32,000 nt of DNA from Candidatus Saccharimonadota bacterium (GCA_023898645.1 CP060232.1:90001-122000), one strand, 5' to 3'. Positions 2,453 to 25,453 are shown, numbered from the stretch's first letter. A program made the numbers and translations. The notes: generated from the letters alone by a model not told the origin.

Positions 2453-5400
2453 ATGAAGCAGCGTATATATCAAAACTATCGACGGATTCGTTTCATACTT
2501 TTGAAGCGGTGGTATCGTTTGCTTTCGCATCCATTCTGGGCGAAACATTTTGGGCATTTACGTCGACGTACGAAGCGAGCTGTATCACTCGCGGTCACAT
2601 CGATGCTTATTGTTCTTATGTTGTTTTCTCTCGTATTTCAGGCGGCACAAGTTCAGGCGCAAACGCATTCACTCGGTTCGAAAGATCTGCTAGACGGAAC
2701 GATGCAATACGGAACGACTCAGCTGACTAACCAAAATACTCAACTTTCGCTTCAACAGGGATACGTTGGTTCCTGGGACAACTCAACTATCGATGGTATT
2801 CAACCTGTCCAGACGTATACACGCGGCACGGGAACGTTGGCCTATGGTCCAAATAATATACTCTATAGTCTGTCAAATATGGGAGGACAGTGCTACTTTC
2901 GATCGTATGACATAGAGATGCAGCAGTGGAATATTCTCAAAAGTGTACCAATTGCGTGTGGGGCAGGGTCGCATATTGTAAGTGACGGTACGCAATATAT
3001 TTATTATTTCGCTGGTGACTCTACTAGTGTATTTTATCGATACGATATCGGTGGTGATTCATGGGACAAACTGGCGGACGTTCCTTCTCAGGTGGGTGGC
3101 TATAGTGACGCAACTTACGTCGTCAAAAATAATGTCGGATACGTCTATTTGTTTAGAGGTGCTTCATCGGCATCTTTTCTGCGCTACAACGTGTCGACAA
3201 AGGTCTGGGATTCATTATCCTCATTTCCGACATCATCAACGGTAGCATATGGTATTGCCATGGTGTGGGACCAGGCAGATTCAATTTACGCAATTAATAA
3301 CCGTGTGGGTGAGTTCAAAAAATATACAATTAGTACAAATTCGTGGACAGACATATCCTCGCTTAGTTATCCGAATACGCATGTCACTATGCATTATGTA
3401 AACGGCTCGATTATTGCAGTTAAATTGCAGTATTGGCCCTATACGGTGCACGGTGCAATTCAGTCGTACAATATTGCCACAAACACGTGGACTGATTTAC
3501 CGAAGCCGCCGGTAGCAGCAACGAACTATGGCTGGACGCCGCCGTCGGCGTATGACGGCTCACGCTACATATACGCAGAATACGGAACTGATTTGCGACA
3601 GGATATATTTCGTTACGACACTCAGACGCAGTCGTGGGACTCAACGTCGTTGTATCAGCTAGATAATGACGATAGTGATTGGCATCAGGGTATGATTTAC
3701 GACGGTGTACAAACCGTCTACTACACTGGGGGCACCGGTTCTGGCAGTGTGGACCGTGTGTATAAATACGATTTATCGACAAGGCAGACCACCTTGATTG
3801 GTAGTCAGATTAATACTACCAGCGGTTGGAAAGGTGTGTATAAGTCGGGCGATCTATATATGTTGCCTTATGCGGGAAATACGATTTTTCAGAAATATAA
3901 CATAGCGACAAATGCGTGGACGCAGCTAGCAGACCTGCCTTATGCAACGAACTGGGGACTTGACATCGTCGATGGCAATGATGGCTATTTGTATGCAGTG
4001 ACTGGCGGTAGAAACGAATTTTGGCGGTACAGCATAGCAACAAATGCGTGGACGCAGATGGCAAATATACCATTGCGACCATATACCGGCGGGGGACTTA
4101 CCCGAATAGGAACTACGATCTATGCATCTACGGGTGGCAGTTACAGTCACTTCTACAAATACAACATGTCAACAAATACATGGACGCAGATTACAAACTT
4201 TATACCGAACGGCAAGATTGATCATGGTGGGTTTATCACGGCTGACGGTTCGAGGTATGTGTACATTGGAGCGGGTACGAGAACTGACCCACTGAATCGT
4301 CGTCTGTATCGCTTTGACACGACGAACGAAACCTGGCAACGATTGGCAGACTTGCCGGCACCAACCAATGTAAATGCATCAGCTTTTTATGATTCTACGA
4401 GTAGTAAACTGTATGTTGCACAAAGTTGGGATTCACCGAGACTTTGGAATTGGAGCCCGAGCGCTGCAAATTATGTAACGTCTGGTACATGGTATTCAAA
4501 GCCAATCAACCTAACGCAAGTACAATCCTGGCAACCACTTCAGACAACATCGGGGGGCACGGGAACGACAACTATCTATACCCGTACATCGAGCAATGGA
4601 CGACTTTGGACTGATTGGCAGGCGACGACTGGTACCACAATTAATTCACCGGTCAACAAATACATACAACTCAAGGTAAGACTTTCGGGCGACGGAAGTA
4701 GTACGCCGACCATATCAAACATAGACATCCAGTACGACCAAGAAACAGTACCGCCGAACTTGCCTTCGCAATTTACGGCTTACGACAAGTCTGGGGGGGC
4801 GACGCAGCTGACGTCTGGGCAAACCTACGAATACGAACACCCGTACTTTACCTGGGCTGGCGCAAGTGACGGGAACAACGGCTCTGGTGTGGATGGGTAC
4901 TACGTTTACTTCGGAACTGATTCAAGTGCTGATCCTGCAACAGACGGTAACTATCAAACTGATGCGACATATACAGTCGCGGCACCGATGACGGCGGGTG
5001 ACGTGTACTATGTGCGTATAAAAGTGAAAGACAAGCTAGGCAATATAAGCGCTGCTGCTACGTACTTTAGTTATCGCTACTGGTATATTTCGCCGCCAGG
5101 GTCGCAAGTTATGACGTCTGACGCAGACTTTAACAGTGGGACAAATACCCACGTTGCGATAAGTGGTAATGCTATGAAACTTAAAAGCGTTTCGGGCGGG
5201 TCGTGGGGTACAGGGCCAACGGATGCGCTTCCTGACACGCCATACGGATCGTCTGAAGTCATCATAGGTGACTACATGTATATGATGCGCGGATCCAGTA
5301 CTGCAACTATGTGGCGCTACGATTTGTTGAACAAAGTATGGCAGACTATGGCAGATGCGCCCGGTATATTTAGTGTAGGCAGCAGCATGACGTATGACGG

Positions 5401-8400
5401 TAGTAAGTATATTTATACGATTGCCGGAAACAATACGAATAATTTTTATCGCTACGACACTGTAAATGACACGTGGACAACTTTGGTTAATCTTCCAGCA
5501 AGTGCGCAGATTGGATCTGACATCACGTATGTAGGAAACGGTAAAATCGCTATGCTGTTCACCGGAGGTAGGGAATTTTACGTCTATGATATTGCAAGTC
5601 AGGTATTTGGTACGCGACAGAGTTACCCATCTATTATCGGTTACGGCGGTTCGGGTATATGGTATGACGGCAACGACACGATCTATGTAAATATGGGTGG
5701 CGACTACATATGGAATTTTACCGATAATACCAGGGATATATTTGCCGAGTATTCGCTCAGTAACGATACGTGGCGTTCGCTTGCAAAACCACCCGTCAGC
5801 GCGTTCTATACGCAGAACAATCTAGTTAGCGACGGCCACGGGGGCCTCTATATGGTATCAACTGACGCAAACCAGAGCATAGGCAAGAATCAAATGGCGT
5901 TTCGTTATGACATAGCAAGTGATTCGTGGGCTGAAGCTCCGGGCCTAACGTCACAAGTGCTTTATGGATCGATGGTGTCTGATAATAATCGCTATGTTTA
6001 TATCATCCCGTCATACTCCGGCCATAGCCGCGAGCTTATTCGGTACGACACGTGGAATAAAATATATACGCCAACCACTAAGAATATAGATAAATGGGAA
6101 CGCATGAGATGGGACTGGCCGTATAATGCTTGGACTTGGGAAGCAGGAAATGCCACTACGGCAGCGTATGACGGTTCGAAATACGTATACGCGATTGGTG
6201 CTGACGAAGGCGGATTCTCGCGGTTTGTACGATTTGACCCAGACACAGGCGACACGCAATATCTTGCTAACCCATACTACGTGAACCTTGGAGGCTCGAT
6301 AGCTTACTTAGACGGCAGTGTTTATTACATGCGTGGCGGGGGCTCAAGAGAAATGATGCGCTACGATATTGCAACTGACATGTGGTCTCGCATGACGGAC
6401 ATACCTGTCGGTGCACATCGTCCCGGTGCATCGGCATTGCAAGTAGTCGGTTCATCGATATATGTTATGACCGGTTACGGTGGCACTGGATTTTATGAAT
6501 ACACTCCCGACTCCGGTACGGGAACATGGACACAAAAGGCAAATATTCCGGGCGGTATATATTATGGTTCCGCCACGTATGATAGTGCGAATGGTTATAT
6601 CTATGTACTGGCCGGCAACAATAGTGTAAATGACTTTTATCGCTATTCGATCGCTTCCAATACGTGGACGACAATGGCATCGTTACCAACGGTATCTTAT
6701 TACGGCAATGCGATGGTTGTGAACAATGGAAAAATTTATGCCGCGTTGGGGTCGCTTACCACGACAACGTATATCTATGACATCGCAACGGATAGTTGGA
6801 CGCAAGGTACTTCGGCGCCCGAAGCATTTTCACATGGTTCGATATTTATACCTATAAATTCTACACACGCATTAGCAATATCTGGTGATAATAGTCCTAA
6901 TCTTTGGCAGTTTAATTACCCAAGCGCTACAACTGCCTACGAGGGTAGCGCTACGCATGTTTCGCAGATTTTTACGACACCAGGCATTTTTGACTACGCG
7001 GGAATTACTGCTCAAGTCGACATACCTGCTGGTACGAGTGTAGAGTTCTTTACTCGTACGTCAGACGATGCCAATAGCTGGAACGATTGGTCTAGAACGA
7101 ACAACACGAAGTACTATAGCGGACAACTGACGACAATGGTGACTTCGACACCTCATAAATATACGCAGATTAAAGTCGTCATGGAGTCGCAAGATAATTT
7201 ATATACACCGACTGTCAGTAGCTATGCGTTGAACTACTATTATGACGTCGACCCTCCTACTAATCCGTCGGTCATAAACGTGTACAAGACGACAGCAGAG
7301 ACCACTGAGCTTACAAGCGGTGTATGGTACAACAACGCCACTCCGGTATTTGAATGGCCAGACCCAGGACAACCGGGTGGTGCAACCGACGGTCCGCTTG
7401 GGTCTAACCTTGCAGGCTATTGGGTTTATCTAGGTACTGACTCGACGGCGTCTCCTCGAACTGCAGGTCAATTCGTGACCGATAGTAAATACATACCAAA
7501 TCTACAGACGTCGGGTACGTACTACCTTCGCATACAAGCTCAGGACGTCACGGGTAACGTAGACGGTAACATCTACGCACCGTTCGTTTACAAGTTTGAC
7601 AAAGATCCGCCTACGGCTCCAAGTTTTATCACCGTGACGCCAGGCGGCTACACGACGACTAATAATTTCACTTTTGATTGGCCGGCAGCCTATGACGGAC
7701 ACTCTGGGATTTCTGGCTACTGCTATCATACCGGTGCGACTAGTGGTCCATTTGCTACTGAAACTTGTCAGACGGGACGTAACTTGTCTGACGTATCTGC
7801 AGCGTATCTTACAGGGACAAATGTATTATACTTACGTACGCTTGATAATGCGGGCAACTACTCGTCGTCGTATACGACAGTGTCGTTTTACTTCTCGACA
7901 GATCCTCCTAGTCCTCCGACAAACCTTCGCGCAATTCCGCCGTCGTCACCACAAAACCTCTTCGCCTTTGCGTGGGATTTGCCGTCGCTATATTCGGGAG
8001 ACCCTAACCAACTAACGTACTGTTACAGCATAAACGAGCTGCCTTCTGCAATAAACACAACTTGCACGAACGACCGATTTATCTCTGCCTTTAAAGCGGC
8101 AACACAACAGGGGACGAATATCCTGTATATGGTTACTAAAGACGAAGCGGGCAACGTAAACTGGAATAACTACGGCAGCGCGAACTTTATCGCTAATACT
8201 GTTTCGCCTGGAATTCCACTTAATCTTGTTGCGACCGACACTTCGGATCGAGTTTCTGGACGATGGTCACTGACGTTGACGTGGGATAAGCCGACATTTG
8301 AAGGTAATGGTATTGCAGGGTATGTCGTACAACGTTCACCAGACGGTCACACCTTTACTGACATTGGCAACACAAGTACCACCGCATTTGTTGACTTGGA

Positions 8401-9715
8401 TGTTCAGCCAAGTAACACATACTACTATCGAATCATTGCGGCCGATAACGTCGACAACCGTGGTGGTCCGTCGGGTACGGTATCGGCGACGCCGCAGGGA
8501 AGCTTCACATCGCCACCGACTGTTGTCGTGCAGCCTAGCGCGACAGCCAGCTTTGATCAAGCAACGATTCATTGGGTAACGAACCGTGATTCGACAAGTT
8601 TCGTCTATTATGGCACGAATCCTAGTGACCTCAGTCAGAGTAAGGGTACGCTTGATTTGAAAGCTGACCACACTGTCATGATTACTGGTCTTGATCCATC
8701 GTCAACCTATTACTATCGTGTTCAAAGCTTTGACAACGAACGTACCTATAATCTTACAGATGCGTATTCACAAATATTTTATACAAAGACATCCGAGGCG
8801 GCACGAATCTTTAACGTTAATAGCGACAGCACCACACTTTCAAGTACCGTCCTGGGTTGGCAGACGAGCGTGCCTACGCAAACTCGCATAGATTATGGCA
8901 CGACGACGGCTTACGGATTAAGTGCAACGAGCGACGAAGGTCTTGGCACTAACCACACATTTAAGTTAGACAATCTTAATAGTGGCACCACGTATCATTA
9001 CCGGGTTGTGTCGACGACGTCGTTTGGCAGTACGATACGTAGTGACGACTATACATTTACGACTATTTCGCGGCCAATTATCAGCAACGTACGCTTTAAC
9101 CCATTGGTGAATGATCCGACAACCAGTGTAAAGGTGAGCTGGACAACAAATGTACCAACGACATCAACTGTGCATTATCAGGGAACGGGTGTATCTCAGG
9201 AGATGGCAAAGAGTGAACTAACCACCTCGCACGAAATAACACTTCATAATCTTGCGAGCAGCAGTGAGTATGTATTTAACATCGAGGGTCGTGACAGGTA
9301 TGGCGACCTGACGACTTCTGAGGAGCAACGTTGGCGCTCTGGTTACGATACGCGTCCGCCAAGTATAAGTAACACTAGCCTTAGTATGACAACGACGCAG
9401 GGCGTGAGTAACACGCGTGCTCAGTTGATCGTCAGCTGGAAGACGGACGAACCTGCCACGTCACAAGTCGCATACGGTAAATTAAGTAGCGGAAGGCTCG
9501 ATAAGAAAACACCGGTAGACACAGAGCCGACAACGAACCACGTGATTATTGTCTCCGGTCTTGATCTGGCAGATATTTACAAGGTTCAAATCATATCAAG
9601 AGATATCAGTGGTAACAGCGCATACAGCACCCCGACTCTCGTGGTGACGCCAGACAGGGAAACGAGCGTGCTTGATAGCGTGATAACGCTAATGCAGAAA
9701 TTGTTCAGGTTTTAA
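2453..9715 (+). CDS. Giant (2420 aa) secreted or surface-anchored protein: N-terminal signal anchor, two long arrays of Kelch-like beta-propeller blades, multiple FN3-like domains
   Basis: ATG lies 1 nt after the upstream stop. The N-terminus is basic, followed by 'AVSLAVTSMLIVLMLFSLVFQAAQVQA'. About 20 blades carry the motif '[ND]xW[TD]xLxxxP' (NAWTQLADLP, NAWTQMANIP, NTWTQITNF, ETWQRLADLP, KVWQTMADAP, DTWTTLVNLP, NTWTTMASLP, ...). FN3-like units begin 'PPxxP[ST]'. Four C-terminal units have the signature 'IHWVTNxxSTSxVYYG...YYYRVQS'. Confidence 0.9.
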   Translation: MKQRIYQNYRRIRFILLKRWYRLLSHPFWAKHFGHLRRRTKRAVSLAVTSMLIVLMLFSLVFQAAQVQAQTHSLGSKDLLDGTMQYGTTQLTNQNTQLSLQQGYVGSWDNSTIDGIQPVQTYTRGTGTLAYGPNNILYSLSNMGGQCYFRSYDIEMQQWNILKSVPIACGAGSHIVSDGTQYIYYFAGDSTSVFYRYDIGGDSWDKLADVPSQVGGYSDATYVVKNNVGYVYLFRGASSASFLRYNVSTKVWDSLSSFPTSSTVAYGIAMVWDQADSIYAINNRVGEFKKYTISTNSWTDISSLSYPNTHVTMHYVNGSIIAVKLQYWPYTVHGAIQSYNIATNTWTDLPKPPVAATNYGWTPPSAYDGSRYIYAEYGTDLRQDIFRYDTQTQSWDSTSLYQLDNDDSDWHQGMIYDGVQTVYYTGGTGSGSVDRVYKYDLSTRQTTLIGSQINTTSGWKGVYKSGDLYMLPYAGNTIFQKYNIATNAWTQLADLPYATNWGLDIVDGNDGYLYAVTGGRNEFWRYSIATNAWTQMANIPLRPYTGGGLTRIGTTIYASTGGSYSHFYKYNMSTNTWTQITNFIPNGKIDHGGFITADGSRYVYIGAGTRTDPLNRRLYRFDTTNETWQRLADLPAPTNVNASAFYDSTSSKLYVAQSWDSPRLWNWSPSAANYVTSGTWYSKPINLTQVQSWQPLQTTSGGTGTTTIYTRTSSNGRLWTDWQATTGTTINSPVNKYIQLKVRLSGDGSSTPTISNIDIQYDQETVPPNLPSQFTAYDKSGGATQLTSGQTYEYEHPYFTWAGASDGNNGSGVDGYYVYFGTDSSADPATDGNYQTDATYTVAAPMTAGDVYYVRIKVKDKLGNISAAATYFSYRYWYISPPGSQVMTSDADFNSGTNTHVAISGNAMKLKSVSGGSWGTGPTDALPDTPYGSSEVIIGDYMYMMRGSSTATMWRYDLLNKVWQTMADAPGIFSVGSSMTYDGSKYIYTIAGNNTNNFYRYDTVNDTWTTLVNLPASAQIGSDITYVGNGKIAMLFTGGREFYVYDIASQVFGTRQSYPSIIGYGGSGIWYDGNDTIYVNMGGDYIWNFTDNTRDIFAEYSLSNDTWRSLAKPPVSAFYTQNNLVSDGHGGLYMVSTDANQSIGKNQMAFRYDIASDSWAEAPGLTSQVLYGSMVSDNNRYVYIIPSYSGHSRELIRYDTWNKIYTPTTKNIDKWERMRWDWPYNAWTWEAGNATTAAYDGSKYVYAIGADEGGFSRFVRFDPDTGDTQYLANPYYVNLGGSIAYLDGSVYYMRGGGSREMMRYDIATDMWSRMTDIPVGAHRPGASALQVVGSSIYVMTGYGGTGFYEYTPDSGTGTWTQKANIPGGIYYGSATYDSANGYIYVLAGNNSVNDFYRYSIASNTWTTMASLPTVSYYGNAMVVNNGKIYAALGSLTTTTYIYDIATDSWTQGTSAPEAFSHGSIFIPINSTHALAISGDNSPNLWQFNYPSATTAYEGSATHVSQIFTTPGIFDYAGITAQVDIPAGTSVEFFTRTSDDANSWNDWSRTNNTKYYSGQLTTMVTSTPHKYTQIKVVMESQDNLYTPTVSSYALNYYYDVDPPTNPSVINVYKTTAETTELTSGVWYNNATPVFEWPDPGQPGGATDGPLGSNLAGYWVYLGTDSTASPRTAGQFVTDSKYIPNLQTSGTYYLRIQAQDVTGNVDGNIYAPFVYKFDKDPPTAPSFITVTPGGYTTTNNFTFDWPAAYDGHSGISGYCYHTGATSGPFATETCQTGRNLSDVSAAYLTGTNVLYLRTLDNAGNYSSSYTTVSFYFSTDPPSPPTNLRAIPPSSPQNLFAFAWDLPSLYSGDPNQLTYCYSINELPSAINTTCTNDRFISAFKAATQQGTNILYMVTKDEAGNVNWNNYGSANFIANTVSPGIPLNLVATDTSDRVSGRWSLTLTWDKPTFEGNGIAGYVVQRSPDGHTFTDIGNTSTTAFVDLDVQPSNTYYYRIIAADNVDNRGGPSGTVSATPQGSFTSPPTVVVQPSATASFDQATIHWVTNRDSTSFVYYGTNPSDLSQSKGTLDLKADHTVMITGLDPSSTYYYRVQSFDNERTYNLTDAYSQIFYTKTSEAARIFNVNSDSTTLSSTVLGWQTSVPTQTRIDYGTTTAYGLSATSDEGLGTNHTFKLDNLNSGTTYHYRVVSTTSFGSTIRSDDYTFTTISRPIISNVRFNPLVNDPTTSVKVSWTTNVPTTSTVHYQGTGVSQEMAKSELTTSHEITLHNLASSSEYVFNIEGRDRYGDLTTSEEQRWRSGYDTRPPSISNTSLSMTTTQGVSNTRAQLIVSWKTDEPATSQVAYGKLSSGRLDKKTPVDTEPTTNHVIIVSGLDLADIYKVQIISRDISGNSAYSTPTLVVTPDRETSVLDSVITLMQKLFRF
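3901..4057 (+). repeat. Intragenic direct repeat: 25-nt CATAGC[G/A]ACAAATGCGTGGACGCAG at 3901-3925 and 4033-4057, 132 nt apart
   Basis: Read directly from the sequence; one mismatch. The 132-nt spacing is 44 codons, one Kelch blade. Both copies encode IATNAWTQ. This reflects recent blade duplication or homogenisation within the giant gene. Confidence 0.8.
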
Positions 9716-19395: not shown

Positions 19396-20409
19396 ATGGA
19401 CCAAGACATATTGGCGCCCGAACAGGCAGAGAAAGACAACTACAAAGAAACCGACGTGTTTGCCTGGGCAAACAACATGCTGCAATACAAAGAAGATCTC
19501 AAGATTGATCTGTTTTTGATTAGCAAAAGCTACATACCGTTTAGGATTAAATTAGCCGACAGTTTACGGCAGCAATTAGAGCCACTCTTTATCGACGGGT
19601 TGTTGGAATATTTGTTTGAAGGTGCCGAGGAGGGTATGACAGTGCGTGGGTTTGAAGAAGCTGAGGCTGAGGCTGGTGTATTGCAGCGCACGCAGGTATA
19701 CAAAGTCGTGCACGCACGCGAAACGCTTCGCTGGATTAAGACGCAGGAACATGAGATCGAGACGTTCAACGACGACGAGCATGATTTCGGTCGCATGAAA
19801 GGCATGATCGCGCGGGTGAGCCACCCTGATATGAAACACGAAGTTTTCGTCGTAAAGGTGCTGCCACGCTCCAACGTCATGCAAGGCAAAGCAGGCTGGA
19901 TGGTCAAGAGCGGCAAGTTTGTACCGTTCGACGCCGAAGCCGCCGTGCGCATACCAGCCGACAATCAGCTGCTTATTATCGACCAAGATATGTACGTGTT
20001 TAGTCAGGCGCGCCTGAAGCAGATGTTTAGCTACGACGCCAAGGAAGCAATCATTGCCGAGAAAAAGGTCAAAGAAGTCAACGCTAACTTCCGACTGAGC
20101 TTCCCAGAGGGTCAGAATATGCAGACGCTGATTGAGGGCAAGCGAAGTATCATCAAAAAGCTACAAAAACTTGATACGACGGCCGTTAAGCAGGAGCAAC
20201 TACTAGAGCACGCCGAGGACTTGGGCATCGAAATGATGCAAGACGACACCGGCGCGATTATCATCATGGACGACAAAGATATGGGCAAGTTCGTCAATCT
20301 ACTCAATGACGACTATATGGAATCAGCACTGACGGGTCAGCGCTACGAGATCATCCAGAAAAAACTTCTGAAGATTGATGAAGATGACGCTGAGCCGGTC
20401 GCGCCCTAA
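19396..20409 (+). CDS. Hypothetical protein; resembles the DUF4868 (KwaB, Kiwa defence) family by pattern only
   Basis: 337 aa, soluble. 'IDLFLISKSYIPFRIKL', 'HEVFVVKVLPRSNVM', 'LLIIDQDMYVFSQARLKQMFSYD' and 'FVNLLNDDYMESALTGQRYE' recall the DUF4868 layout. No profile search was run. Confidence 0.4.
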   Translation: MDQDILAPEQAEKDNYKETDVFAWANNMLQYKEDLKIDLFLISKSYIPFRIKLADSLRQQLEPLFIDGLLEYLFEGAEEGMTVRGFEEAEAEAGVLQRTQVYKVVHARETLRWIKTQEHEIETFNDDEHDFGRMKGMIARVSHPDMKHEVFVVKVLPRSNVMQGKAGWMVKSGKFVPFDAEAAVRIPADNQLLIIDQDMYVFSQARLKQMFSYDAKEAIIAEKKVKEVNANFRLSFPEGQNMQTLIEGKRSIIKKLQKLDTTAVKQEQLLEHAEDLGIEMMQDDTGAIIIMDDKDMGKFVNLLNDDYMESALTGQRYEIIQKKLLKIDEDDAEPVAP

Positions 20410-20477
20410 TATCAGCTAGCTTTTCTAAAATCTGCTATATTTGTATTGGAAAATACTTATGTTTAGGTGGATTTAAA

Positions 20478-20504
20478 ATGAGGCGCGTGGAATATGAAAA
20501 CTGA
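20478..20504 (+). CDS. Candidate 8-codon mini-ORF MRRVEYEN* (leader peptide, uORF or small precursor peptide)
   Basis: AGGTGG (20465-20470) lies 7 nt upstream of ATG 20478, the best SD in this intergenic region. The ORF ends in Asn-TGA and overlaps ATG 20494 of the next gene by 11 nt in another frame. It is too short to call statistically. Confidence 0.3.
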   Translation: MRRVEYEN

Positions 20505-21375
20505 CGGAATAGAGTCCAGGTTTGATTCCCATGAGCCTCCACGAACTGATAAGTATGACTATAGCTACTTTACCCCAGAGGAAAATCCTGACGGAGAGTT
20601 GCTTGCCAAGCAGATTCAAGCACAGAGTTACGTCAACATGCGGATTGTTCGCCCCGAAGGGTTAATTACGCTTGCGAATGGTGCGCAGATTATGGCCCCT
20701 TCCGCATCTAATCCATCGGGAGTTCCGTATGTCCCGATTGTCGGTAGTCGGGCTGAATATGCTCTTGGAATAGAAAAAGGAACGACCGATCTCAACCCGA
20801 TGACCGGCCGGCTAGTCGCTTGGAAAAAGCTCTATGCACCTTTAGACGCATTGCCGGCGTATCAATTCAGCAAAGACGTTCTTTGGTCAGAGGGAGAGCA
20901 GTACCTGCGGAGTGTCGAGGCGGATCCAGGCTGTGTTTTAGTAGAACCAGAAGCGCTCGGCAAGACAATAAACGCTGGTCGTGCAGTGGTTAAAGAGTTT
21001 ATACGAGCTGAGATACAGCGAGTATTGGGTAGGGGCGAAGTGTGGTTTATGGGACTTGTCGAAGCGACAGCATTTGAATCTTTTGTCCACAACTGGGGAC
21101 AGACCGCCGTAAAGCAAATTGGCCCGTCGAAACAAACGTTTCATCCACAGATGTGTAGCGGCATTGCGTTGGTGCCGACTGTTATGAATATCGACAGTTT
21201 TTACGATGACATGGCTTACGATATTTTGACACCAGGAAATAAATTTGCCGAACGACAATTAACTAACTTTGTCTACATGTCTGACGGTGTCAGTGACACC
21301 ACACTAGGGTCTGAGCTTGCTGAATTTCGAGTTTGGGCATGCAATTTAGCGAGAGCTATGGGAGGTACTTTGTGA
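20494..21375 (+). CDS. GNAT-fold acyltransferase-like protein of the LuxI / FeeM N-acyl amino acid synthase type (pattern-level call)
   Basis: The layout parallels autoinducer-synthase-like GNATs: N-terminal 'LLAKQIQAQSYVNMRIV', a middle 'GRLVAWKKLYAPLDALPAY', 'VLVEPEALGK', then 'EVWFMGLVEATAFESFVHNWGQTAVKQIGPSK...PTVMNIDSF'. CDS call ~0.8; the value given is for the functional call. Confidence 0.45.
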   Translation: MKTDGIESRFDSHEPPRTDKYDYSYFTPEENPDGELLAKQIQAQSYVNMRIVRPEGLITLANGAQIMAPSASNPSGVPYVPIVGSRAEYALGIEKGTTDLNPMTGRLVAWKKLYAPLDALPAYQFSKDVLWSEGEQYLRSVEADPGCVLVEPEALGKTINAGRAVVKEFIRAEIQRVLGRGEVWFMGLVEATAFESFVHNWGQTAVKQIGPSKQTFHPQMCSGIALVPTVMNIDSFYDDMAYDILTPGNKFAERQLTNFVYMSDGVSDTTLGSELAEFRVWACNLARAMGGTL

Positions 21376-22487
21376 ATTATCATGGCGATTCACTAGAGTA
21401 CTGGATGAAGCGTGAAGTAGTAGAGGCGCCGGAGTGGTCAGAACCTGAGTGTTATGATCCAAATAATGTGAGTGACAGGCGGGGTATGTACAGTCGTGTC
21501 GTCATGGGCGGCGCAAAAGTCCAGCGGAAGGTTGCTGCAATCGCCGAAGATCTCTTTGAGATGAAGCATCCTGACCAGAAAAACAATCAGACCGCACGCG
21601 AGCGCTTCGTCGAGCCGATTTCAGCCGAGGGCGATCGTTATGGTAAATGGTACTATTTTCCCTGGTCAAACCAGCTTGTGCAGTATCCCGACAGGGAGGA
21701 ACATCGTTTACTTTTAACGTTTCGCAACCGAGAACTGATTACTGCGGATGAACTGCGTAAGATTGGTTCCGCGACAACGGCGCATATAGGATTAAGTGTC
21801 GGATCGCACATACTTGAACAGACGTCTCATATGGCGCTAGGGGATAAAGTTATTTTAGCCGATCCAGATGTTATGTCTGTGCCAAATCTGAACCGAATTA
21901 ATGCCGGTATGCCAGAAGTGGGTATGCGCAAGACAGATGTTGCGGGTATTCGCTTGAGCGAGCTGAATCCATACGTTAAACAGGTACATCTTTTTGATGG
22001 CATAACGTCACAAAATGCTGAAGTAGTTGCCCGACATCACCCCGATTTGATATTTGAAGAAGTCGATCACATGCCAACGAAGATACTGATGCGTAAACTT
22101 GCGTATCGAGTGGGTGCTGCCTTGATTATGGCTACCGATACGGGTGACCTTACCATGATCGACGTGGAGCGGTATGATTTAGGTGATGTTAAGCCGTTTT
22201 TGGGTAGACTGACAACAAACGAGATGATGATGATCGAGGAAGCGAACCCGTCACCAGAGCAGACGGTGCGTCTGATTATAAAACTGATTGGTCTAGAGAA
22301 TATATCTATGCGCCTTGCACAGTCATTGGGGCAGATCGGCATCACACTAGGAGGGATAGCGCAGTTGGGTACGACGGCGTCGACTGGCGCCGCCTATGCA
22401 GCCGTTGCTGGTCGTGAAATATTACTCAAGAGAGGACCTACAACTGGCCGCTACAAGGTGTCTCCGCAAGAAGTGCTGCATCTGTGA
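21372..22487 (+). CDS. E1/ThiF-family adenylyltransferase with a ~130-aa N-terminal extension (MoeY/Rv1355c-like architecture)
   Basis: 'AHIGLSVGSHILEQ' (variant GxGxxG), 'VILADPDVMSVPNLNRINAG' (the D.D..sNLNRq signature of ThiF/MoeB/E1), 'VGMRKTDVAGIRLSELNPYV'. 'WYYFPWSNQLVQYPDREEHRLLLTFRNRELIT' precedes the Rossmann fold. GTG 21372 follows GGAGG (21361-21365) and forms a GTGA overlap with the upstream stop. ATG 21333 is an alternative. Confidence 0.8.
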   Translation: MNYHGDSLEYWMKREVVEAPEWSEPECYDPNNVSDRRGMYSRVVMGGAKVQRKVAAIAEDLFEMKHPDQKNNQTARERFVEPISAEGDRYGKWYYFPWSNQLVQYPDREEHRLLLTFRNRELITADELRKIGSATTAHIGLSVGSHILEQTSHMALGDKVILADPDVMSVPNLNRINAGMPEVGMRKTDVAGIRLSELNPYVKQVHLFDGITSQNAEVVARHHPDLIFEEVDHMPTKILMRKLAYRVGAALIMATDTGDLTMIDVERYDLGDVKPFLGRLTTNEMMMIEEANPSPEQTVRLIIKLIGLENISMRLAQSLGQIGITLGGIAQLGTTASTGAAYAAVAGREILLKRGPTTGRYKVSPQEVLHL

Positions 22488-22503
22488 AATAGTAGAGTTT
22501 CGT

Positions 22504-22532
22504 AAGCGCTATCAATAGCGCTTGCTTTTTTT
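22504..22532 (+). terminator. Rho-independent terminator
   Basis: AAGCGCTAT-CA-ATAGCGCTT is a perfect inverted repeat (effective 8-bp stem, 4-nt loop). It is followed by GC and T7, 17 nt after the E1-like stop. Confidence 0.75.
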
Positions 22533-22608: not shown

Positions 22609-23049
22609 ATGATTTTCTACGATCACGTAGATGAAATGGAGCTTTTCAACGATGCCATGGAAGCAAGTGGCATGGCATGGTGGCTGTTTGAACACCCGAC
22701 TGGATTAATTTTCTTCCACCCCAACAAGCTTAAGATGCTTGGTTACGACGCCAAGGATGCTGAGAAATTCGTACACATAAGTAAGTTTGTCGATTTGATG
22801 CACCCAGATGACATCGAATCTACAACGGGCGCCCTCGGTGCTTATTTAGAAGGCAAGACTGACGATTATCAGGCTGATTATCGTATGAAGACCAAGAACG
22901 GTGAGTACAAGCGCTTTTACGACCGTGGCAAGATTGTCGGCAAGAGACCAGACGGTCAGATCGCAGTCGCTGGGTTCGCTATGGATCTGACGCAGTCGAA
23001 ATTAATGCCACGCCCAGCGCAGACTACCGAGCTGTCGAATAAATCGTAG
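22609..23049 (+). CDS. Stand-alone PAS domain protein
   Basis: 'GMAWWLFEHPTGLIFFHPNKLKMLGYD', 'MHPDD', 'YRMKTKNGEYKRFYDRGKIV' match the PAS_3-type pattern. A strong purine-rich SD (AAGAGGAGAGGAAA) lies upstream. Confidence 0.85.
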   Translation: MIFYDHVDEMELFNDAMEASGMAWWLFEHPTGLIFFHPNKLKMLGYDAKDAEKFVHISKFVDLMHPDDIESTTGALGAYLEGKTDDYQADYRMKTKNGEYKRFYDRGKIVGKRPDGQIAVAGFAMDLTQSKLMPRPAQTTELSNKS

Positions 23050-23140: not shown

Positions 23141-25453
23141 ATGCCAAAACACAAAAAATTTCCACGATGGGCGTATACTTTGCTCTCCGCAATTATCGTT
23201 GTTGGTTGGGTAGCATTTGCTGGCATCAGTGGGCCTTATTTTGGAAAAATTAGCGATGTTTCCAGTACTGACCTGTCGACGTTTCTACCGAATAGTGCCG
23301 AAGCAACAAAGGTCAACGATCAACTAACAAAATTTAGCGATAAAAAAGCAATTCCAGTTATCGTCGTTTATACACACGACGACAAAAAGCTGACTAGTGA
23401 TGATTTGTCACGAATCTCCAGCGTTGATGAAAGCCTAGCCCAAGTAAAGGGAGTTACTGGCACAGTCTCTCAACCCATACAGTCAGACGACAAAAAAGCA
23501 GCCTTTGTCAGCGTGCCGCTTGCGAGCGACGCTGATTTCAACAGCGCCTTTCCGGCAATCAAACAAAAACTTGCAGATTCAAATCTGAAATTTTCATATG
23601 TACTTACAGGTCCGGCATCGCTTGCCCATGATTTACAGACAGCTTTTTCAGGTATCGACAGTACGCTACTGCTCGTTGCGCTTGGCGTCGTGTTCTTCAT
23701 TTTGTTGATTGTGTATCGATCGCCATTTTTGCCAATCATCGTTTTATTTACTGCAATGTCGGCTCTTTCGGTAGCCGTATTTTCGGTGTATCATTTGGCC
23801 GACGCAGGCGTTGTGCAGCTAAACGGGCAGGTACAGGGTATACTATTCATCCTTGTCATTGGAGCAGCGACCGACTACTCGCTACTGTACATTTCACGGT
23901 ATCGCGAAGAGCTTACCTTGCATCGTAAGACATGGGACGCCATGTGGGCAGCATTGAAATCCGCTTACGAACCGATTATTGCAGCCGGCGGTACGGTGAC
24001 TGCCGGACTGCTTTGCTTGCTGCTGTCTGATTTAAAGTCAAACCAGGCGCTTGGACCGGTCGGCAGCATTGGCGTCGCGTTTTCTGTAGTGGCAACTCTG
24101 ACGCTACTGCCGGCCTTGTTGTTGCTAGCGGGTAGGACTGCTTTTTGGCCACGACGCCCGAAATTCGTTGAGAAACAAGGCCGCGATGGCTACCTTCGGA
24201 ATCATCCGGCATGGGCGCGGGTTGGTGCACTGGTGAGGCGTCATCCACGCAGGGTGTGGGCGGCGTGTATAGTTGTCTTGCTTGTAGCTGTTGCGGGTGT
24301 TCCACAGCTAAAGGCTGATGGTGTCTCGCAGAGCGACATTGTTCTTGGTAAATCTGAAGCACGTGACGGGCAGGCGATTCTCGACGCGCATTTCCCGAGT
24401 GGATCAGGGTCACCAGCCTATGTGGTGGCAAGTCAGGACAAGCTCGATTCTGTCGTAAAGGTGCTTGATGCTGATAAGGGTGTCGCTTCCGTTTACGCGG
24501 TGGCAAATGGTGTTGAATCAGGCTCTATGCCTTTGGGTGGCGCTGCCGACACTGTGCTTAACAAGGTCAAGGAGCAGGTGAAACTTCAGCGTTATGATCA
24601 GATTTCGGCTATGCACAAACAGTTCGCCGTTCAGATGGCAGGAGTGCCGCAAGCCCAGATGGACGCTGCCTATATAGCTGCCGCTGCAAAACTACCGAGC
24701 GTTGATACGATTGCCAAGCAGGCGTATCCTTTTAAAAATGCTACTGTGAAAACCGTAGACGGTGAAGTACTTCTACAAGTTACATTATCTGACCCTGGAG
24801 CGTCACTCGCGGCTCGCGATTCGATTGTGCGACTACGCGACAGTGTCAAAAAGGTAGATGCTGGTGCCATCATAGGAGGTACGAGCGCATCACAGTATGA
24901 TACAAATCAGGCTGCACTTCGTGACATACGGGTAGTTATGCCAGCAATATTGATTGCAATTACATTAATACTAATGCTGCTTTTGCGCGCAATTGTCGCT
25001 CCACTTTTGCTCCTTCTGACAACCGTTTTGTCGTTTGGCGCGACTATGGGTATTGCTGCACTTGTCTTTAATAATTTGTGGAAATTCCCAGGAGCCGACC
25101 CGGCCGTGATTATCTTTGGCTTCGTGTTCTTGGTAGCGCTCGGCATTGATTACAATATATTCCTGATGACACGTGTCCGTGAAGAGACGATAAAGCACGG
25201 CGTGACAGAGGGAACTATAAAGGGGCTAGTTGTGACGGGCGGTGTGATTACTAGCGCCGGTATCGTCTTGGCTGCGACATTCGCATCGCTGAGTGTAATC
25301 CCCATTTTGTTCCTAGCTGAAATCGCATTTATCGTCACCTTTGGTGTGCTACTCGATACCATCATCGTGAGGTCATTGCTCGTACCTGCGTTGACACTCG
25401 AAATCGGTCGGCTTATGTGGTGGCCGTCTAAGTTGTGGCGAAAAAGCAAGTAA
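23141..25453 (+). CDS. MMPL-family (RND superfamily) membrane transporter
   Basis: 770 aa, with two 6-TM bundles each preceded by a large extracytoplasmic domain. 'GAATDYSLLYISRYREEL' and 'LGIDYNIFLMTRVREE' are MMPL hallmarks. Confidence 0.9.
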   Translation: MPKHKKFPRWAYTLLSAIIVVGWVAFAGISGPYFGKISDVSSTDLSTFLPNSAEATKVNDQLTKFSDKKAIPVIVVYTHDDKKLTSDDLSRISSVDESLAQVKGVTGTVSQPIQSDDKKAAFVSVPLASDADFNSAFPAIKQKLADSNLKFSYVLTGPASLAHDLQTAFSGIDSTLLLVALGVVFFILLIVYRSPFLPIIVLFTAMSALSVAVFSVYHLADAGVVQLNGQVQGILFILVIGAATDYSLLYISRYREELTLHRKTWDAMWAALKSAYEPIIAAGGTVTAGLLCLLLSDLKSNQALGPVGSIGVAFSVVATLTLLPALLLLAGRTAFWPRRPKFVEKQGRDGYLRNHPAWARVGALVRRHPRRVWAACIVVLLVAVAGVPQLKADGVSQSDIVLGKSEARDGQAILDAHFPSGSGSPAYVVASQDKLDSVVKVLDADKGVASVYAVANGVESGSMPLGGAADTVLNKVKEQVKLQRYDQISAMHKQFAVQMAGVPQAQMDAAYIAAAAKLPSVDTIAKQAYPFKNATVKTVDGEVLLQVTLSDPGASLAARDSIVRLRDSVKKVDAGAIIGGTSASQYDTNQAALRDIRVVMPAILIAITLILMLLLRAIVAPLLLLLTTVLSFGATMGIAALVFNNLWKFPGADPAVIIFGFVFLVALGIDYNIFLMTRVREETIKHGVTEGTIKGLVVTGGVITSAGIVLAATFASLSVIPILFLAEIAFIVTFGVLLDTIIVRSLLVPALTLEIGRLMWWPSKLWRKSK

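Follow-up and report, generated by a model that had tools for sequence, protein, structure and literature searches.

The window analysed here is a stretch of 32,000 nucleotides (nt) from a Candidatus Saccharimonadota bacterium (GCA_023898645.1, CP060232.1:90001-122000), and all positions are those of the whole stretch. The source names of homologs and related contigs also place it in Saccharibacteria (TM7/Patescibacteria). The element in question is a mini open reading frame (ORF) of eight codons at the 5' end of a gene pair on the plus strand. The first gene (20494-21375, +) encodes a 293-aa GNAT-fold protein, which is predicted from its fold model to be an N-acyl amino acid synthase-like acyltransferase with a role like that of OxzA, TyzA or TrzA. 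The second (21372-22487, +) encodes a 371-aa adenylating enzyme of the ThiF/E1 family, of the Rv1355c (TrzS)/TyzB/OxzB-like type (Pfam ThiF, 6e-12). The two-gene operon is closed by an intrinsic terminator with a 10-bp stem and a T-run (22502-22525, +), and an intergenic region of 84 nt (20410-20493) lies in front of the GNAT gene.

The mini-ORF (20478-20504, +; ATG AGG CGC GTG GAA TAT GAA AAC TGA) encodes MRRVEYEN, and the Shine-Dalgarno (SD)-like sequence AGGTGG (20465-20470, +) stands before ATG 20478 with a 7-nt spacer, ATTTAAA. As an upstream ORF (uORF) it is in frame +1 relative to the GNAT gene and overlaps the first 11 nt of the GNAT ORF, with its stop (TGA 20502-20504) ending 8 nt beyond the GNAT ATG at 20494. 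This ATG is the sole in-frame start of the GNAT gene, any longer form being blocked by an in-frame TGA at 20479. Its own ribosome-binding site (RBS) is weak, and the closest GAGG (20480-20483) has a 10-nt spacer and lies inside the mini-ORF. The first-pass annotation of this DNA had already described the AGGTGG, its spacer, the coordinates of MRRVEYEN, the length of the gap, the position of the GAGG and the poor RBS of ATG 20494, and all of these were confirmed on the sequence.

We counted ATG ORFs of 5-20 codons on both strands of the window, allowing an SD spacing of 4-10 nt. Of the 340 mini-ORFs found, 8 are preceded by an SD-like match of 5 nt or more and 2 by one of 6 nt, and the second of these two is located inside a patatin gene. 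An SD followed by an ATG within an intergenic leader is uncommon. The terminal Asn of MRRVEYEN is uninformative, because 2.6% of the mini-ORFs in the window and 4.7% of those in related loci end in Asn anyway. A second mini-ORF of the leader, MFRWI (20459-20476, +; ATG TTT AGG TGG ATT TAA), overlaps AGGTGG, has no SD and is not conserved, and it is probably a chance product. The leader is identical in an independent Logan assembly (L026; L-numbers such as L001 denote related loci or contigs) which differs by 2 mismatches in 6116 nt, and therefore the leader sequence is not an assembly slip. A look-up of strain variants of the leader via identical ThiF proteins gave the same strain only.

From the comparison of orthologous leaders, a putative extended -10 element, TGCTATATT, was located at 20433-20441 (+; hexamer TATATT at 20436-20441). 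A -10 of the TGnTATAYT type (TGCTATACT/TATACT-like) is found 45-60 nt 5' of the GNAT start in most orthologous loci, and a strict two-hexamer promoter scan did not call the element at 20433-20441. From the position of this element we infer that transcription would start near 20448, giving a leader of about 46 nt that contains the mini-ORF. An Rfam scan of 20300-20700 returned no family. The leader RNA of the window folds with z = -3.3, involving the 8-bp repeat 20453-60/20549-56 and a GUGGA/UCCAC pairing. This repeat is a perfect inverted repeat, ATACTTAT/ATAAGTAT (20453-20460 / 20549-20556), and it flanks the leader together with the opening 20 codons. Neither L016 nor L018 conserves it, and their leaders fold differently (z = -1.4 and z = 0.2, respectively); the idea of a conserved riboswitch or attenuator was therefore rejected.

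To see how far the arrangement recurs among relatives, the 140 nt 5' of the GNAT start were read in 16 distinct orthologous loci, and an ATG uORF of at least 3 codons with its stop between -6 and +15 nt of the main start was scored. Such a uORF abuts the GNAT start in 10 of the 16 loci, while dinucleotide shuffles give 5.3 +/- 1.75. In order to compare, we applied the same criterion to 63 other genes of the same loci with an upstream spacer of at least 50 nt, and 9 of these have such a uORF (Fisher p = 2e-4 against 10 of 16). The peptides encoded by start-abutting uORFs include MRRVEYEN in the window, MGRMHKQL (L016), MKRG (L013), MKRGWA (L001), MKRAAGWTCE (L007), MNRRGRRTS (L020), MRGRDGKG (L019), MREKSG (L004) and MGR (L014). 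The nearest relative is L016, whose GNAT protein is 67% and whose ThiF protein is 84% identical to that of the window. Its aligned uORF, MGRMHKQL, also has eight codons, the stop overlaps the main ATG as ATGA, and the main ATG is not preceded by an SD. Moreover, the uORF starts with the motif ATGARRCGYG in three lineages (the window, L013/L001 and L007), for which the background, counting both strands, amounts to about 0.7 matches per 32-kb window.

The 293-aa GNAT-fold protein has no match in Pfam, NCBIfam, PADLOC or a sequence search of PDB. Its AlphaFold (AF2) model, built with 31 homologs, reaches a predicted local distance difference test (pLDDT) score of 91.7, with residues 1-13 disordered (pLDDT < 50). 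In a Foldseek search of this model against PDB, the best matches are FeeM (2g0b; E 7.7e-5) and the acyl-homoserine lactone (AHL) synthase TofI (3p2h), followed by generic GNATs. The identity to these FeeM/LuxI-type synthases is 8-11%, and the protein has about 100 extra residues. A GNAT-like protein had been called from the sequence in the first-pass annotation; the model bears this out at the level of the fold, and the call can be sharpened to the FeeM/LuxI branch on the same model. The family is small, with 36 clusters at 90% identity; a profile search extends it to about 190 representatives. Among members with a named source it occurs in Saccharibacteria only. When 67 members were scanned, only faint FeeM and exosortase-acyltransferase hints appeared, the Pfam FeeM model giving a faint match (E = 0.08) in 2 of the 67. 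The conserved part of the protein begins at about residue 15, and the N-termini in the family vary in length and sequence.

The ThiF gene starts at GTG 21372, which overlaps the GNAT stop as GTGA, and is preceded at 6 nt by the SD GGGAGG (21360-21365, +). From this overlap the ThiF gene is predicted to be translationally coupled to the GNAT gene. The 371-aa form is identical with database protein P0037. The motif ATGARRCGYG occurs once more in the window, as ATGAAGCGTG at 21405-21414, in codons 12-15 of the ThiF gene (M-K-R-E) and 30 nt past the GNAT stop. This site could be an alternative ThiF start, and the database homologs favour GTG 21372.

The earlier call of an E1-like enzyme agrees with the Pfam ThiF match, and the family can be narrowed. 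The best NCBIfam match by far is the family Rv1355c, with E = 3e-53 and 181 bits; it spans positions 39-339 of the 722 in the model. This falls short of the full-length cut-off, as the protein lacks the half of the model that corresponds to the flavin oxidase (FDO), while the other NCBIfam families (ThiF, MoeB, TcdA) score at most 35 bits. In a tblastn search of 72,556 plasmids with the ThiF protein, all matches are actinobacterial proteins annotated as Rv1355c-family, ThiF-fusion or "ThiF family adenylyltransferase" proteins. By BLASTP, an Rv1355c-family protein of Rhodococcus shares 28% identity over 317 aa and a Kitasatospora fusion 32% over 315 aa, and the end-to-end alignments take in the pre-Rossmann W-x-Y-F-P-W element. 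Residues 1-130 form a folded domain (order alpha-beta-alpha-beta-alpha-alpha-beta-beta-alpha) that aligns with the N-terminal part of proteins of the Rv1355c family. In the ATD motif the Asp (D256) is conserved, as is the GLSVGS loop, and D256 would be equivalent to D217 of TrzS.

In the structural comparison the ThiF model matches PDB 9egb best, a 2025 structure described as "AclA in complex with substrate" from Tenacibaculum discolor. A literature search on AclA of Tenacibaculum gave nothing relevant. The chemistry of AclA might bear on the function of a ThiF enzyme that has no FDO.

Known enzyme pairs of this kind make N-acyl oxazolones. Rv1355c (TrzS) of M. tuberculosis and the upstream N-acyltransferase TrzA (Rv1356c) make N-acyl tryptazolones (PMC12856293), and TyzA/TyzB/TyzC of M. 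tuberculosis (Rv2336-2338c; PMC10404671) and OxzA/OxzB of Pseudoalteromonas rubra (bioRxiv 10.1101/2020.06.11.147165; review PMC12596934) work likewise. Each of these pathways begins with the N-acylation of an amino acid by the acyltransferase, continues with adenylation of the carboxylate and ring closure to an oxazolone by the ThiF enzyme, and ends with desaturation by an FDO (PMC12856293, PMC10404671, PMC12596934). The closest structural homologs of TyzA are FeeM and the AHL synthase BjaI (PMC10404671).

The locus of the window resembles OxzAB, TyzACB and TrzAS in that an acyltransferase of the FeeM/AHL-synthase fold is encoded directly upstream of a ThiF-like enzyme in the same operon, and the two are fused in some genomes. 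Other Saccharibacteria, for example, have GNAT and ThiF joined in a single chain of 662 aa. On Kitasatospora/Streptomyces plasmids, proteins of 616-622 aa carry the ThiF domain as their C-terminal half and are followed by a ketoacyl-ACP synthase (KAS) III gene, and the N-terminal half of the Kitasatospora type has only a faint GNAT match (Acetyltransf_7, E = 0.044). These proteins, the 662-aa fusions and the plasmid type taken together, are located at L025 6001-7989, L022 3116-4966 and L030 2068-3936, and no FDO is annotated beside the plasmid ThiF proteins of Kitasatospora/Streptomyces. As in TrzS, the sequence of the window ThiF protein points to the Rv1355c family, to which it is most similar. 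Signalling genes are also found near both, namely PAS, histidine kinase and response regulator genes in the window family and cyclic di-GMP genes beside trzAS, and an MMPL transporter lies nearby as in the tyz cluster. By analogy, the acyltransferase would make an N-acyl amino acid, and the ThiF enzyme would adenylate its carboxylate and cyclise it to a product of the 5(4H)-oxazolone type. Since the architecture is that of the oxazolone pairs, the ThiF substrate would therefore be a small molecule made by the neighbouring enzyme, and no ribosomal peptide is needed.

The locus also differs from the oxazolone pairs, and the lack of an FDO and of sequence similarity in the GNAT family counts against an oxazolone-type operon. 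Of the three features of the oxazolone architecture, the cyclase clade and the upstream FeeM-fold acyltransferase are present, and the third, the FDO, is absent. The 371-aa ThiF protein has no FDO domain and no second domain, and no gene of the Nitroreductase family was called within about 6 kb, as far as the contigs permit, in L010, L011, L013, L014, L018-L020 and L024-L026. In OxzB and TrzS, by contrast, the oxidase of the nitroreductase superfamily makes the conjugated oxazolone. Another difference is that the GNAT family could not be linked by sequence to any curated family, and comparison of its profile (hhalign, hmmsearch) with the actinobacterial N-terminal partner domains and neighbouring hypothetical proteins gave no similarity either; any homology of the acyltransferase to TyzA, TrzA and OxzA is predicted from the fold. 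The constant PAS_3-only protein downstream and the host, a member of Saccharibacteria in the candidate phyla radiation (CPR), are further differences. No report of such a pathway in Saccharibacteria came up in a literature search on oxazolones and N-acyl amino acids in this group. The analogy suggests that the GNAT-ThiF pair most resembles enzymes that make N-acyl oxazolones, and it stops short of establishing an oxazolone as the product.

For the mini-ORF itself, we consider that it may be a short uORF in the 5' leader of this operon that couples translation of the first gene in cis, a reading to which we give about an even chance of being correct. In bacteria, coupled leader uORFs act by termination-reinitiation at overlapping stop and start codons, such as ATGA or TGATG junctions. 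Here, ribosomes would load at AGGTGG, translate eight codons and terminate at UGA 20502-20504, 8 nt beyond the GNAT AUG with its weak RBS, and would then reinitiate at this AUG or open the region for initiation. The mini-ORF would act in cis only, and the peptide and its terminal Asn would be irrelevant. Like coupled leader uORFs, the mini-ORF has its own SD and a stop few nucleotides from a start with a weak RBS, and L016 has the classic ATGA overlap. Unlike them, the stop in the window lies 8 nt downstream of the main AUG and does not overlap it, and several orthologs lack the uORF or have it fused. The first-pass annotation had given a regulatory leader peptide as its conservative reading and had called the geometry typical of termination-reinitiation coupling. 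The coupling gains some support from the 10 of 16 loci compared with 9 of 63 controls, while the peptide is not conserved.

A number of observations weigh against a coupling leader. No uORF was found in the leaders of L003, L005 and L010, and L018 has the codons homologous to the uORF fused in frame with GNAT. All that L002 and L008 carry is a short ORF with its end 8-21 nt before the start, and L011 carries a different ORF of 17-20 codons. The uORF is not indispensable, because it is missing, fused or different in several orthologs. A strong uORF SD is present in the window and L007 only. The conservation of the peptides stops at M-(K/R/G)-R, and the length, sequence and last residue differ. 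In most uORFs the G-rich codons 3-5 also serve as the SD of the main gene, and this dual role could be the cause both of the conservation and of the missing stops. The enrichment values are to be read with the limits that the uORF criteria were chosen post hoc and that the statistics ignore the kinship of the loci.

The strongest competing explanation is that the mini-ORF is a relic or a chance ORF, which we regard as a serious contender, rated below even chances. The old 5' end of the GNAT gene (SD, ATG and five codons) would have been stranded by a 1-nt insertion after TATGA, and GNAT would now be translated from ATG 20494 via the GAGG at -10. In this reading the start codon has shifted among lineages by small indels, and the mini-ORF would serve no purpose today. 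Alignment of L018 (494-575) with the window (20478-20545) pairs (M)RGVNSYESDE, which is in frame with GNAT, with MRRVEYE plus TDG; MRRVEYETDGIESRF results when the AAAA run at 20497-20500 is shortened by one A. This in-frame relationship of L018 is robust. Compared with L018, both the window and L016 have one extra nucleotide after TATGA, and both start at the embedded ATG. The in-frame codons of L018 are what a relic predicts, and the disorder of GNAT residues 1-13, the variable N-termini of the family, and uORFs whose sequence, length and stop differ in every lineage are consistent with it. An SD-preceded mini-ORF ending in Asn is expected about 0.2 times per window, which leaves room for chance. 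On the other side, the window and L016 keep the ATG and exactly eight codons at the aligned site, start-abutting uORFs are four times commoner than at the control genes, and the start motif is common to distant lineages, whereas a decaying relic is expected to lose its ATG and SD. We lean slightly towards the coupling leader over the relic, since the window and L016 have retained the ATG and the length of eight codons although their proteins have diverged by 33%. Under both readings the peptide and its Asn would be irrelevant. A further idea, that the start codon of L011 is homologous to the mini-ORF ATG (MGRNNYE versus MRRVEYE), was dropped, as MAFFT aligns it with the main ATG of the window with no indels.

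It is very unlikely that the mini-ORF and GNAT are made as one protein (MRRVEYE-TDGIES...), either by a +1 frameshift at AAC UGA C or because the difference in frame is a sequencing error. The main frame is indeed +1 to the mini-ORF, and L018 encodes the fused form; the stop stands in the context UGA-C, which terminates weakly, like that of the shift site in prfB, and this also fits a shift. However, a move from AAC to ACU offers no slippery re-pairing, and no SD-like stimulator is located 3 nt upstream. A sequencing error is contradicted by the agreement of two independent assemblies and by the same unfused frame arrangement in L016. In addition, the main ORFs of L011 and L016 share a 17-residue distance from Met to (P/S)R with the product of ATG 20494, which argues against a fused product.

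The last explanation, that MRRVEYEN is a microcin C precursor of the MccA type whose Asn is adenylated by the E1-like enzyme to a peptidyl-nucleotide, with GNAT serving modification or immunity, deserves hardly any credence. This had been raised in the first-pass annotation on account of the strong SD, the eight residues, the terminal Asn as in MRTGNAN and the E1-family enzyme two genes downstream. The resemblance covers a very short SD-driven ORF ending in Asn near both an E1/ThiF enzyme and a GNAT-fold protein. MccB chains are also present among the structural matches of the ThiF model, but only from rank 23 (root-mean-square deviation 6.4-11.5 A), behind AclA, ThiF, MoeB and the E1s of ubiquitin-like proteins. 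The proposal does not survive the comparison of loci: no Asn end is conserved in the 16 orthologous loci, whose leader ORFs, where present, have L, G, A, E, S, G or R as the last residue, and the aligned ORF of L016 ends in Leu. Within -400 to +3400 nt around the GNAT start of the related loci, no recurrent SD-preceded Asn-terminal ORF was found. The enzyme is not MccB-like in sequence; it groups with the small-molecule cyclases of the Rv1355c/TrzS type, and no NCBIfam MccB model matched. It has a single, non-conserved Cys, no CxxC Zn site and no Pfam match for RRE/PqqD. The GNAT gene intervenes between the supposed precursor and the enzyme gene, and its product is FeeM/LuxI-like; in microcin C immunity, MccE carries a RimL-type acetyltransferase domain. 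In the window and the related loci there are no mccC-like (exporter), mccD-, mccE- or mccF-like genes, the neighbours being KwaB-like, PAS_3 and MMPL genes. The GNAT-ThiF locus is no microcin C system. To find a new Trojan-horse peptide of the microcin C kind in a CPR bacterium would have been notable, but the idea does not hold.

Downstream of the operon, a 146-aa PAS_3-only protein is encoded at 22609-23049 (+; Pfam PAS_3 9e-14). The synteny is strict, with a PAS_3-only protein of 136-156 aa directly 3' of ThiF wherever the contig reaches far enough. Histidine kinases and response regulators recur near GNAT-ThiF loci (e.g. L024 3996-9454 and L025 5548-12673), and these surroundings suggest that the product is a signal. 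A paralogous pair, GNAT2 (331 aa) and ThiF2 (391 aa), lies between two response regulators and a histidine kinase. An MMPL-family transporter (23141-25453, +; Pfam MMPL 1.5e-104), a possible lipid exporter, follows, and this adjacency is seen in the window and L011 (8644-10935) only. In L010, a PALP gene of the cysteine-synthase type is located upstream (3181-4254). In M. tuberculosis, cysK1 and mmpL9 flank the tyz cluster (mmpL9: PMC10404671), and the MMPL and PALP neighbours mirror this, which may be a coincidence.

Upstream, a KwaB-like (DUF4868) gene (19396-20409, +) is syntenic in most loci, but is not upstream in L010 and L019, and is probably outside the GNAT-ThiF operon. No KwaA-like partner is called beside it. 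In several relatives a single-transmembrane protein of 126-132 aa, absent from the window, follows the KwaB-like gene (L013 5516-5896, L014 5554-5943, L020 2534-2932). The arrangement may represent a Kiwa-derived module of other composition. Farther away in the window, a secreted or anchored protein of 2420 aa with many beta-propeller-like and FN3-like repeats (2453-9715) stands between an 803-aa Ig-like repeat protein (40-2451) on its 5' side and an ABC transporter pair on its 3' side; the 2420-aa protein is probably an epibiont surface adhesin.

Taken further, the pair might be an FDO-less offshoot of the oxazolone pathways, specific to Saccharibacteria, that makes a saturated N-acyl-amino-acid azlactone, or a derivative of this activated intermediate, as a signal between cells or between epibiont and host that is read by the PAS proteins, kinases and regulators, with the M-(K/R)-R uORF as translational control of the synthase that possibly reports translation stress. 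We put this forward as a speculation that is unlikely to be right. The stress-reporting idea echoes P. rubra, in which oxazolones are elicited by erythromycin and chloramphenicol.

Saccharibacteria are epibionts with reduced genomes and little known secondary metabolism. The operon described here is conserved among them and is related to recently discovered pathways by which Mycobacterium and Proteobacteria make N-acyl oxazolone lipids. The leader uORF offers a small, testable example of translational coupling or of start-codon turnover. The FDO-less cyclase pair, wired to PAS and two-component genes, provides a testable lead on the role of these lipids. If confirmed, the class of N-acyl oxazolone lipids would extend to the CPR, with a hint of a signalling role.

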